In this document: in pieces, positions 6,020-13,334 of the stretch
Layout: every line of letters begins with the position of its first letter
Position numbering within the stretch: position 1 is the first letter of the stretch
From: Mobula hypostoma
Lineage: Eukaryota
Reading direction: 5' to 3'
Assembly (NCBI RefSeq): GCF_963921235.1
Contig: NC_086097.1
Span: 88,848,001-88,912,000, forward strand
Length of the DNA stretch: 64,000 nt
Notes under the pieces: model-generated
Told to the model about the DNA's origin: nothing
Database searches by the model: none
The model's input: only the letters and a program-made list of their open reading frames with translations
Position numbers and translations under genes: made by a program

Positions 6020-6612
6020 GGCATGTCAATAAATACACTCTAAAACTTCTATAGTTGTACCATGGAGAGCATTCTGACAGGCTGCATCACTGTCTGGTAT
6101 GGAGGGGCTACTGCACAGGACCGAAAAAAGCTGCAGAAGGTTGTAAAGCTAGTCAGCTCCATCTTGGGCATTAGCCTACAAAGCACCCAGGACATCTTTA
6201 GGGAGCGGTGTCTCAGAAAGGCAGCGTCCATTATTAAGGACCTCCAGCACCCAGGGAGTGCCCTTTTCTCACTGATTGTACCATCAGCTAGGAGGTACAG
6301 AAGCCTGAAGGCGCACACTCAGCGATTCAGGAACAGCTTCTTCCCCTCTGCCATCCGATTCCTGAATAGACATTGAAGCTTTGGACACTACCTCACTTTT
6401 TTTTTAATATACAGTATTTCTGTTTTTGCACATTTTTTAAAAACCTATTCAACATACATAATTGATTTACTTGTTTATTTATTATGTTTTAATTATTTAT
6501 TATTTTCTCTCTCTCTCTCTCTCTGCTAGATTATGTATTGCATTGAACTGCTGCTGCTAAATTAATAATTTCATGTCACATGTAGGGGCCAATAAAACTG
6601 ATTCTGATTCTC
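6020..6612 (+). mobile_element. Rex1/Babar-type LINE 3' fragment inserted in an older CR1 fragment
   Basis: ORF 6062-6376 ESILTGCITVWYG...RCLRKAASIIKDLQHPG...NSFFPSAIRFLN, the same C-terminus as 30979-31803; (attctg)n tail. Confidence 0.85.
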
Positions 6613-7329: not shown

Positions 7330-8395
7330 GAAATCTTGAGCAACACAAAGTGCTGGAGAAACTCAGCAAGTCCGGTAGCACCTATGAGTGGGAATAAGCA
7401 GTCGACGGTTTGGACTGAGACCCTTCATCAGGCCTGGAAAGGAAGGGTGCAGAATCCAGAATAAGAAAGTGGGGGAGGGGGAAGATGTACAAGCTGACGG
7501 GTAATAGGTGAAGAATGAGGGAGGATGAGTTATATAAGCTGGGAGGTGATAGGTGGAAGAGGTAGAGGGCTGAAAAGAAGGAATCTGACAGGACAGGACA
7601 GTGGACCATGAAGGAAAGGGAAGGAGGAGGGCCAGAGAGAGGTAAGGAGAAAAGAAGGGGTGAGAGAGAAATCAGAATGGGGAATGGAAAAAAGGGAAAG
7701 GGGAGAAATTATTGGAAGTTAGAGAAATCAATGTTCATTCATCATGTTGGAAGCCACTCAAGACAGAATATGAGGCATTACTCCTCCAATCCAAGTATGG
7801 TCTCATGTGATAGTACAGGAGGCCTTGTACTGACATACCGGAATGGGAATGAGATGTCGAAATTAACTGGGTGGCCACTGGGAAATCCCAACTCTCGTGG
7901 CAGACAGAGCCAAGGTGCTCAGTGAAGCAGTCCCTCAAAATACGTCAGGTCTCACTAATGTAGAGGAGGCCACATCAGGAGCACCAGATACAGTACATGA
8001 CCCTGACAGACTTGCAGGTGTAGCACTGCCTTAACCTCAAGCACTGTTTGGGGCCCTGACTGGAGTTGAGGGAGAAGGTGTAGGGGCAGGTATAGCACTT
8101 GTAGGGATAAGTGCCAGGATCAGTGGTGAGAGACGAGTAGGCAAGGGAGAATTTCTTCAGCCTTTACCTCTTCCCATCACTTCCCAGGTTCTTACATCAC
8201 CCCGCGCCCACCCCCCCCCAACTTTCCCTTCACCTGGTTTCAACTATTACCTGCAAGTTTCTACCCCCTCCACTCCCTTTTTTCTAATTCTAGCTTCTAC
8301 CCCCTTCCTTTCCAATCTTGACGAAGGGTCTCAGCCTGAAATATTGACCGTTTATTCCTCTGCATAGATGCTGCCTGACCTGCTGGAGTTTGTTC
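7330..8395. mobile_element. Penelope-like element remnant with inverted arrangement (minus 7330-8150, plus 8152-8395)
   Basis: pLTR-type motif at both ends in opposite orientation (7401-7435 and 8317-8350); degenerate GIY-YIG region (MRDCFTEHL...FPVATQL). Confidence 0.8.
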
Positions 8396-9106
8396 AAGTG
8401 ATAATACTTAGGAGCAAACACTGGCTCAAACTTGCACGTTTCTCTTCAAAACAGCACCATATAGATGTGAGAGAACAGTTATGTGACATCCTACCTGTAA
8501 GACATCTCTAAATGACGCCCCCCCCCACCCACTCTATAACAGCACCCCACCCCTATTAGTGCTCAATGCTTCTATGGAACGATCAGCATAGATTTCACAG
8601 TCATGTTGCTGGAGAGCAACCAACAACCTGCCACTTACAATGCTGACGTCCCACAGCAAAGACAAATTCACTTTCACCTCACGTAGTCAAAGTTACACAA
8701 GGGCAAAGTAGTATTTGACATCAAGAATGTGCGTAACCTTTTTCTGCAAGAACAACGAAACTGTGGAGCGGACTGCAGGGAAAATTGTTGAATGGCAGTT
8801 CTGTAAATTTCATCAAATGAGATCCACAATGTTGAAGCTGATGCAGAGATTAGCTTATACACGAGTCTGATTAGCCTTAGCTTGGGCCATTGCATTATCT
8901 GAGAGAAATGCAGTCCAGGAGAAATTTTCAAGAACTATCCCGAGAAATTCCCTGAACTAGATTTTTGTTTTCTGGATTTAACTTCCTTTCCCAGGAGATG
9001 CTGGAGCGGGGGCCTGAAATGCAAGGAATATGACACTGGGATGCATCAGACAGTCTGACTGGACAAAAAGCCCATTTCATCCCTGTTCAGGTTATGTTAC
9101 TAGCAA

Positions 9107-9663
9107 ACTTCCAGTTTGGTCACCGGCCATTCGTCCATGGTTTTCGGTCGGGCCCCGGGCACTCGGAGAGATTCGGCGGGGGGGGGGGTGGGCGTACAGC
9201 GCTCGGCGACTTGGGCCAGCTCCCCCACCGGACTTAGTCTGGTGAGGAGGGTGTGAGGATACCCAGCAGGACTAAAAAAGACAAAACCTGATAAAGGGCG
9301 GATGAGCTCCTTGTGAGCCAACAGCCATCTTCTGTGGAAGAGATTAAAGCCTCCCCACGTATTTACGAATCGTATGCTATGCACTTAGTTAGAAGAAACA
9401 TGATGAACTTGGGCGCTGCACCGTGTGCCTGGATCTGCCCAAGGCCTCCGTCTAAGGAAGGGCCAAGCTCGAAGAAGCGGCCGCGGCTGGAGGCCGATAC
9501 GGCCTCGGGCTCGAGTTCAGAGGGGGCGGCGGCGGGCGGTGCCAAGGCGGCCAGCGAGAACAAACTGGAGGAGAGGCTGTACTCGGTGCTGTCGCAAGAT
9601 CGAAGAAGGTGGAGGTGCATAGCCGCCAGCCCTGGATTCGGGACGGCACCCACTGACTGACTG
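9107..9663 (+). mobile_element. Small non-autonomous RTE-like element carrying a gene-fragment insert
   Basis: Direct repeat actagcaa at 9099-9106 and 9664-9671; (ctga)n tail. With the insert removed, the 3' part reads approximately MNL-AQDRRRWR, an RTE-type ORF C-terminus. Confidence 0.65.
9415..9592 (+). pseudogene. CYHR1: Circularly permuted fragment of a CYHR1/ZFTRAF1-like coding sequence
   Basis: 9417-9452 reads [12 protein letters not shown]; 9457-9591 reads EGPSSKKRPR...[12 protein letters not shown]. Recalled vertebrate CYHR1/ZFTRAF1 reads [25 protein letters not shown], so the two blocks are in the opposite order here. Confidence 0.85.
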
Positions 9664-10614
9664 ACTAGCAAGCAACCTGGTGGCTACACAAGTTCAAATC
9701 ACATCTTGGCAGAATGGAAATATGATTAATTAAATAAATTCTAAAAATAAAACAAAGATGGCAGCTATAAAGCTTGCAGATTCTTATATCAGACTGACAG
9801 TATCTGGCTTACCAGTGGCACTTAATTGAGAAAATTACATCCTTGACGTAATGTAGCTCATTGTTAACTCCCCTACAATGCACAACGAGGGATCAGCAAT
9901 GGATATTCACTTTTCATTAATGCACATGAGCTGTAAATGCAAATAGTTTAGTTTCTTTCTGTCAATATAAACACCAACCAATATTTACGTTAAATGTTTT
10001 CAGTCTACAGGCAACATGTTCCTTCTAAGAAACTTCCTTTGAAAACTAAAATTCTATTATTATCTGTCTTCTATGTGTTAATGGTAATAACCAATGTTAG
10101 CCTCAATTGTTCAAACAAATTATTTTCAAGAATGCTATAAAATGTCCATAGTTAGTACACATTTTTAATGGAGAGTAATATATTTCAGTGTGTTTTAAAC
10201 AGCCTGTGTGTCTCAATGTCAGTCCTATTACAAATATACAAGGTAAAAGGCGATGATTTACTCCAATCTGAGACTGGATGCTCATGTGTATTGCTGAGGC
10301 TGCTCCTGAATGCAAACAGGATATATTGCCTTCTATCGACAAATATAAATCTAGCATACATCTCATTTTTTTGCGCCAACACTTTATACACTGGTAGAAT
10401 GTGCTGCATTCGCTCTAGTGAATATAAATATAAAAGGAAGCAAATCTTGTTATTCAAAATTAAAAATCATTGCAGATGCCGGACATTTGAAATGAGAACA
10501 TAAAATGCAAGAGAAATTCAGCTTATCAGCAATACCTTTTTTCTGTTTGTATCAGGGCAGGGCATTTGTCCTCGCCTTTATATTTTCCAGATTTCTTTTC
10601 TTTCGTTTGTACAT

Positions 10615-12199: not shown

Positions 12200-12568
12200 T
12201 CATAAACAAGAGAAAATTAGCAAATGCTGGAAATTCAAGCAACACACAGAATGTTGGAGGAACTCAGGCCAGGCAGCATCTAGGAAGAGTACAGTCAACA
12301 TTCACCGTCTCCCCCCCCCCCACTTTTCTTTCTTTCATGGCCTTCTATCTCTTTCACCAATTCACTTCCCAGCTCTTTGCTTCATCCCTCCCCCTTCAGG
12401 TTTCACCTATCACCTTGTGTTTCTCTCTCCCCTCCACCTACCTTTAAAATCTACTCTTCCGCTTTTTTCTCCAGTCCTGCCAAAGGGTTTTGGCCCGAAA
12501 TGTCAACTGTACGCTTCTCCTAGATGTGCCTGGCCTGCTGAGTTCCTCTAGCATTTTATGGGTGTTGT
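12200..12568. mobile_element. Mini Penelope-derived element with inverted pLTR ends
   Basis: Minus pLTR 12203-12301 and plus pLTR to 12568, flanked by ctgtatttcaaa (12188-12199) and ctgcatttcaaa (12569-12580). Confidence 0.75.
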
Positions 12569-13334
12569 CTGCATTTCAAACCTCTGCTATGCAACTTGAA
12601 ACCATAATGAGCCCAGTGACTGCAAGTTGGTGTGGTCTTTCATTGATTCTTTTACGGTTAATATTCTATTACAGATTTATTGACCATGCTTGGAAATAGA
12701 AAATGAATCTCAGGTTTGTATATGCTGACATGTACATACTTATATAACAAATTTACTTTAAACTTTGGACTGGCCAACTAATTTTGGGACCCGGATCTTC
12801 CAGTCAAAATGTCTCCACGTAGCGATTTTCACTGATGTCATGACCCACTTTGTAGTATTTTAGGTTCATGGGGATGGTTTTGGGGACAGCTTTGTAGATT
12901 AAGGATCAAGTAGGGTTTATGGACATGGGGTGAGGAAGAGTTGGAGGTCAGGGGCAGGAGCCATGTTGGAAGATCCATGGTTGAAAGGCAGCAATCCTGG
13001 AAGTCAGGTTGCAGGCACTGAGACCAACCATCTCTAGATCAGCAAAGCAGCGGTTGAAGGTCAGATGGGCAAGAATCACGAGGAATGGTGAACCCCCAGC
13101 TCACTGGGGTAAGAGGTCTATGCAAGTGCTGGGGTTGAGGCCAGAAGGTCAAACCCATGATCAGCAAGTCCTGGGGTCAGTGAAATCCGGAGGGAAAAGC
13201 CCAAATAGTGAAGCTTCTGGTTTGGCTTGACAGAGGTCAGAGGTCTGAGAGTTCAGGCGAAGGACTGGAAGTTGGAAGCCTGATGTTTGCAAGTCTGGGA
13301 GTCTGGAATCAAGGACTGGAAGCCCAGAGCGGAA

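Follow-up and report, generated by a model that had tools for sequence, protein, structure and literature searches.

The locus studied here raises the question of how a piece of a host coding exon can come to lie in a genome with its two parts exchanged, and what kind of molecule could have brought it there. The window, by which we mean the whole 64,000-nucleotide stretch of DNA that was analysed (G000:C1:88848001-88912000, from a source genome of 3.48 Gb), carries a GC-rich segment that the initial annotation read as a CYHR1/ZFTRAF1 coding fragment in swapped order, possibly left behind by a small circle of DNA or RNA that had been reopened and integrated at this site.

A circularly permuted piece of ZFTRAF1 exon 1

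Translation of the two blocks gave 45 residues from window 9457-9591 (block B) and 12 residues from window 9417-9452 (block A). A protein database search with the 45-residue block, run among longer proteins (113 candidates), returned four proteins at E<=0.01, and all four are ZFTRAF1/CYHR1 from cartilaginous fishes. In the best match, P0002, the block B protein aligns with residues 65-112 at 34/48 identity, while the 12 residues of block A correspond to residues 114-125, all of them identical.

The parent ZFTRAF1 gene was recovered exon by exon from the same genome, on the minus strand of G000:C5 at 227.93-228.09 Mb. Alignment of the window with the parental 5' exon, the check that the initial annotation had suggested, gave two HSPs that are swapped in the window and abut exactly in the parent. 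Block A (9415..9454, plus strand) equals ZFTRAF1 exon-1 nucleotides 1784-1823 of L014 (reverse complement) at 39/40 positions (E 6e-15), and block B (9455..9592, plus strand) equals nucleotides 1646-1783 of L014 (reverse complement) at 132/138 positions (E 1e-61). The parent reads B then A, without gap or overlap, whereas the window reads A then B. Hence the swapped coding fragment proposed from the letters of the window is borne out by the host's own exon 1, and the new junction (...CTA|AGGAAGGG...) lies where it had been placed. No HSPs other than these two were obtained with the parental exon, which is colinear; the tandem duplication that had been considered in the parent is absent. The 178-nt insert is an exact one-unit circular permutation of ZFTRAF1 exon 1, and the permuted match lies well beyond chance at these E values.

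The ends of the two blocks in the parent do not coincide with splice signals. The downstream edge of block A stops 4 nt short of the parental exon 1 end and is followed there by CC, not GT, and block B begins within the exon, after GG instead of AG. The parental B/A boundary itself sits in a short direct repeat. In the window, the insert amounts to 178 bp, one exact, permuted unit of a GC-rich genic segment, with a GC content of 0.66 in 9400-9599. When the consensus insert of the repeat family described below is compared with the parental exon, 175/178 positions are identical, and with only three differences the exon piece can be said to derive from this lineage's own gene.

The retroposon around the insert and its partner LINE

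The GC-rich segment is larger than the 178-bp island first described: a GC content of 0.57-0.66 spans ~9100 to 9660, between flanks of 0.28-0.43, all of it belonging to a single copy of a repeat. With 311 nt around the insert as query, all 40 scored genome places (40/40) matched at 92-100% over the full query length, from 1320 first-look candidates, indicating that the 178 bp belongs to an interspersed repeat. A query with the 5' part yielded 40 further scored places from 1450 first-look candidates; over the searches, the first-look candidate counts ranged from 900 to 1450.

Target-site duplications at 9100..9108 (CTAGCAAAC) and 9665..9673 (CTAGCAAGC), identical at 8/9 bases, delimit an element that spans ~9111..9664 on the plus strand, its ends being taken from 30 aligned full-length copies. 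This copy of a non-autonomous (bipartite) derivative of an RTE-like LINE is made of a 5' extension (9111..9189), predicted to pair with the first LINE-derived nucleotides in a long hairpin and lacking ~35 nt in the window copy; ~225 nt of the LINE 5' end (9190..9414), comprising the 5' UTR and the ORF start; block A; block B; and the last 72 nt of the LINE (9593..9664), which hold C-terminal ORF codons and end in a (CTGA)3 tail at 9653-9664, within which the stop lies. All of these modules are on the plus strand and in sense orientation. In place of ~2.9 kb of the LINE's interior, the element has 178 nt of ZFTRAF1 exon 1. Comparison of the element with its sources showed that all three internal junctions are blunt, without microhomology.

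Alignment of 30 unique full-length copies gave a family consensus of 574 nt. The copies share a common 3' end with a (CTGA)n tail, their 5' ends are truncated to differing extents, and their target-site duplications are individual (for example in L027, L034 and L035). Divergence from the consensus averages 6.9%, or 4.4% outside CpG sites, and the window copy diverges by 6.6%. The 86-residue frame of the element contains no Pfam domain, and so the element has no reverse transcriptase or endonuclease coding capacity.

The partner LINE was identified through its 3' end. A genome pattern search for the first bases after block B, here joined to preceding sequence other than block B, found 126 exact places (control 0), and all of the loci of that pattern that were fetched (12/12) proved to be the 3' end of a longer repeat, in which the tail is preceded by ORF sequence. 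Two full-length copies of this LINE, L074 and L075 (both on G000:C5), share 3234 nt at 92%, one of them spanning 3226 nt; like the further copies L053-L067, they belong to an element of ~3.2 kb with a (CTGA)n tail. The LINE encodes a reverse transcriptase domain (RVT_1, 2.2e-35) and an endonuclease domain (Exo_endo_phos, 2.4e-7), and its ORF continues into the tail. The longest stop-free frame, of 675 codons, is found in L074, and a single uninterrupted ORF across both domains was seen in no copy.

Both terminal parts of the retroposon match this LINE. Consensus 503-574 aligned with 15/15 LINE loci at 92-99%, always from the same start base. Consensus 100-312 equals the first ~220 nt of the LINE, from the LINE 5' terminus, at 195/219 positions in L075 and 183/218 in L074; by eye, 12 nt beyond consensus 312 also correspond to the LINE, and the 5' part of the retroposon is without 7 nt and 10 nt that are present in the two LINE copies. 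The architecture of the LINE is that of the RTE type, with an APE endonuclease and a reverse transcriptase, a length of ~3.2 kb, a 3' UTR that is very short, and a tail resembling a microsatellite. On this architecture, together with a likeness of its C-terminal motif to that of BovB, the partner LINE appears to be RTE-like.

The first ~99 nt of the element pair with the LINE 5' terminus in a predicted hairpin of ~48 bp that includes several G-U pairs (L027:1474-1603; window 9111-9215, where it is partly deleted), and the LINE 5' terminus makes up the outer 3' arm. Structure prediction for the intact sequence of L027 gave a fold of -81.3 kcal/mol with a z-score of -8.07, and 0/200 shuffles folded as well. 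Outside the inverted repeat, the 5' extension matched neither the parental locus nor any of three LINE copies. The outermost 5' arm is present in 13/30 full copies and is not recognisable in 17/30, and many of these 17, as judged by eye, start at roughly one common position within the hairpin.

A SINE in the strict sense, with a Pol III head derived from tRNA, 7SL or 5S, was considered and ruled out, as ARAGORN and Rfam showed no small-RNA-derived 5' head. ARAGORN reported 0 tRNA genes; the Rfam search of the window copy gave one CRISPR-repeat match (E 0.44), which lies outside the element, and four full copies yielded two matches, both weak and well short of the gathering scores, the best being mir-341 at 28.6 bits compared with a cut-off of 90.

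A search for the exact A|B junction pattern gave 361 places (170 + 191), compared with 0 for its reversed control. Because this pattern is exact in 25/45 unique sampled copies, the family numbers at least ~650 copies, a figure that is a floor since the sample is biased toward well-kept copies. The colinear B-A junction was found at one place, which is the parental exon (control 0). Exact genome patterns for an insert-free form, running from the LINE 5' part to the 3' part across a gap of 0-15 nt, and for a LINE 5' part that continues into sequence other than block A each gave 0 places (controls 0), in searches that demand exact matches and that diverged insert-free relatives could escape. Intermediates that could order the events were likewise not found among the places searched. 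From these counts and the 175/178 identity of the consensus insert to the parental exon, we infer that the permutation probably arose once, in a founder, and was then copied by retroposition. The neighbourhood of the parental exon was considered as a place for a local event and rejected: in the 10 kb examined, 5 kb either side of exon 1, there are no LINE or SINE parts.

Routes to an exact one-unit permutation

We interpret window ~9111-9664 as a retroposed bipartite LINE derivative, a chimera that would have come from a single aberrant round of target-primed reverse transcription on an exon RNA that was closed or was re-entered end to end, and we put the probability of this reading at a little under 60%. 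The terminal 72 nt of the LINE RNA would first have been reverse-transcribed by the LINE enzyme, which would then have jumped to the B/A boundary of a short RNA from ZFTRAF1 exon 1 and read through block B as far as that RNA's 5' end. From there it would have resumed at the 3' end of this exon RNA, which may have been a covalent circle or else a linear 178-nt fragment bridged by an end-to-end jump, and it would have read block A up to the place where it had entered, so that the product held exactly one unit. A switch back to the LINE RNA, ~235-250 nt from its 5' end, would have allowed synthesis to be finished. The product would keep the LINE 5' end, the presumed promoter, together with the 3' recognition end, and with both ends kept, amplification by the LINE in trans would be possible.

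Three features of the element guide this interpretation. The permuted piece is bracketed by both ends of one LINE with blunt junctions, which names the likely enzyme. That the insert is exactly one unit long, entered and left on neighbouring bases, speaks for a template that was topologically closed, and the closed, circle-like intermediate that the initial annotation had called for holds up as the simplest route to such a unit. The sense orientation of all modules is what RNA templates require, whereas capture of DNA gives it half the time. The steps themselves have precedent, as double template jumps in LINE reverse transcription are documented (PMC2104539), as are bipartite non-autonomous LINEs such as Bov-A from BovB (PMC5786205). 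Dong et al. also mention open-ended templates with close ends as an alternative to true circles (PMC4897178).

Two of the earlier suggestions stand in modified form. Template switching during reverse transcription, originally an alternative to the circle, gives the best fit to the flanking LINE parts, but only if both switches used one closed template. As for a reverse-transcribed circular RNA, the closed template is supported, whereas a canonical back-spliced circRNA is not, because the junction is intra-exonic and has no GT/AG. This mismatch to splice sites counts against the RNA route to the extent that the usual production of exonic circRNA is inapplicable; if the RNA was a circle, its maker would have been something other than the spliceosome. 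We regard as less likely than not the narrower version of the RNA route, in which an RTE-type reverse transcriptase copied once round a covalently closed RNA that had been cut and ligated within the 5' exon, not back-spliced, and the resulting chimera gave rise to a family of at least 650 copies.

Among the alternatives, the one that survives best is a DNA circle, which we regard as unlikely. Here, a microDNA of ~178 bp from the CpG-rich ZFTRAF1 exon 1 would have been cut once and end-joined into a double-strand break that deleted 2.9 kb of a LINE, and the repaired copy would have become the master of the family. An exact one-unit permutation with blunt junctions is what a once-cut circle joined by NHEJ is expected to leave, and the size of 178 bp and the GC-rich 5'-exon source suit the microDNA class, whose reintegration would be expected to leave a single exact permuted unit of a GC-rich genic segment of 100-400 bp. 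However, the break, the large deletion, the arrival of a circle from another chromosome and the retention of mobility would all have had to meet in one germline copy, and the sense orientation would be only one of two outcomes. Moreover, the exact genome patterns revealed no insert-free bipartite relative, and the lack of LINE or SINE parts within 5 kb of the parental exon leaves no sign of a local event. Since the two routes explain the exactness equally and the DNA circle needs more coincidences, the RNA route is the likeliest.

It is improbable that the permutation was made without any closed intermediate, either by independent switches or replication slips that fell on adjacent bases by chance, or by a B-A segment captured in colinear order and reshuffled afterwards through duplication and deletions. 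LINE enzymes are known to switch templates more than once (PMC2104539), and the short direct repeat at the parental B/A boundary might favour pausing. Nevertheless, entry and exit on adjacent bases without loss or gain would, by our estimate, have odds of ~1 in 100 or less if the switches were independent, and a tandem duplication in the source would leave the coincidence of adjacency standing. In addition, the exact pattern search showed no colinear or multimeric form outside the parent, and the junctions are without microhomology.

Direct integration at the window site of a free 178-nt circle of DNA or cDNA, as first proposed, would account for the permutation itself, yet it has practically no likelihood left: the identical insert with identical flanks recurs at 361 or more places, those flanks are the LINE 5' and 3' parts and not local site sequence, and the window copy came whole by retroposition, as a complete element with a target-site duplication and a (CTGA)n tail. 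An assembly chimera is excluded by the hundreds of independent copies on many contigs, and chance similarity is equally negligible at E values of 1e-61 and 6e-15 with pattern controls of 0.

Relation to known chimeric elements and features of the family

The element falls into the class of bipartite non-autonomous LINEs and shows each of the class features that we tested for. Known examples are Bov-A from BovB, RIME from Ingi and NARTc from L1Tc (PMC5786205). These elements resemble the present one in retaining nothing of the partner LINE but its 5' and 3' parts, with no reverse transcriptase coding, in being short and of high copy number, and in being mobilised in trans through a shared 3' end and a microsatellite-like tail. 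Unlike them, the present element has its deletion point filled by a permuted host exon fragment and carries an extra 5' hairpin.

With the circRNA-derived pseudogenes of Dong et al. 2016 (PMC4897178), the family shares a non-colinear order of parental exon sequence and the recurrence of a single junction in many copies; the mouse example in that paper comprises 33 copies, associated with LTR elements. In contrast, the junction here is intra-exonic and without splice signals, so that the defining back-splice feature is lacking, the insert is joined bluntly to LINE sequence on both sides, and the copies are more numerous by a factor of at least ten. The same paper called the return of circular RNAs to genomes mysterious. 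If the once-round copying of a closed RNA is true, the family would be a natural record of a circular RNA re-entering genomes, with the enzyme's own sequence on both sides, and since the exact breakpoints are known, the event could be rebuilt in vitro.

The chimeric retrogenes formed by LINE template switching (Gogvadze et al. 2007, PMC2104539) are alike in the direct fusion of retro-copies of different RNAs, in the same orientation and within a single target-site duplication; tripartite cases are documented as well. All of these features were found in the present element, which is a direct fusion in one orientation, with a LINE 3' module and a single surrounding target-site duplication. The differences are that three jumps are called for here, two of them on adjacent bases of one small template, that the enzyme went back to the RNA of its LINE, and that the outcome was a family that amplified.

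Two further systems offer partial parallels. SVA-F1 is a non-autonomous non-LTR composite with MAST2 exon 1, colinear, at its 5' end, acquired by splicing. It is similar in that a CpG-rich piece of a host first exon sits in an amplifying element, and different in that here the piece is internal, permuted and unspliced. The microDNA class, reportedly described by Shibata et al. in 2012, is said to consist of small circles with GC-rich 5'-exon sources. Such microDNA and other small eccDNA share with the insert the size range, the GC-rich 5'-exon source and the exact permutation that a once-cut circle gives, whereas the insert is sense-oriented between LINE parts inside a retroposon. In the freely available literature, we found no permuted exon module in a non-LTR family and no ZFTRAF1/CYHR1 sequence in a retroposon.

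The family demonstrates that a host exon fragment can turn into a fixed body module of a high-copy retroposon, which bears on how the bodies of SINE-like elements arise. It also carries a risk for annotation, as spurious ZFTRAF1-like matches in this genome number in the hundreds. Of the 102 protein-level ZFTRAF1 matches genome-wide, 98 are copies of the retroposon, covering residues ~43-113 only, and gene predictors could take such copies for ZFTRAF1-like exons. For a GC-rich "island" with gene-like coding, repetitiveness is therefore worth testing first.

The element contains a 93-codon open frame (window 9379-9660, consensus 286-567) whose ATG lies in the LINE-derived 5' part. At its start it is in register with the LINE's own open (stop-to-stop) frame. 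Across block A it is out of register with ZFTRAF1; block B, with a KKRPR stretch, is read as in native ZFTRAF1, and the final LINE-derived codons are read as in the native LINE C terminus, up to the TGA of the tail. Selection on this frame was considered and is not claimed: the synonymous share among copy substitutions is 0.42, compared with an expected 0.377 +/- 0.021, a marginal excess, and the frame agreement alone is a 1-in-3 event. The CpG-rich exon piece, lying in one open frame with N- and C-terminal codons of the LINE, may have helped the family.

At window 9451, beside the A|B junction, the parental base is kept in the window copy and a few others (for example L002 and L006) and is changed in most of the copies listed; this base may mark an early subfamily. 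Sequencing runs under four organism labels contain fractions of 0.56, 0.36, 0.29 and 0.20 of the element words sampled from window 9000-9800, a tentative hint that the family may be common to related species. Elsewhere in the window, 6038-6611, 7330-7884, 8288-8385 and 12201-12771 match the flanks of unrelated loci at 64-86%, indicating that further interspersed repeat families lie around the element.
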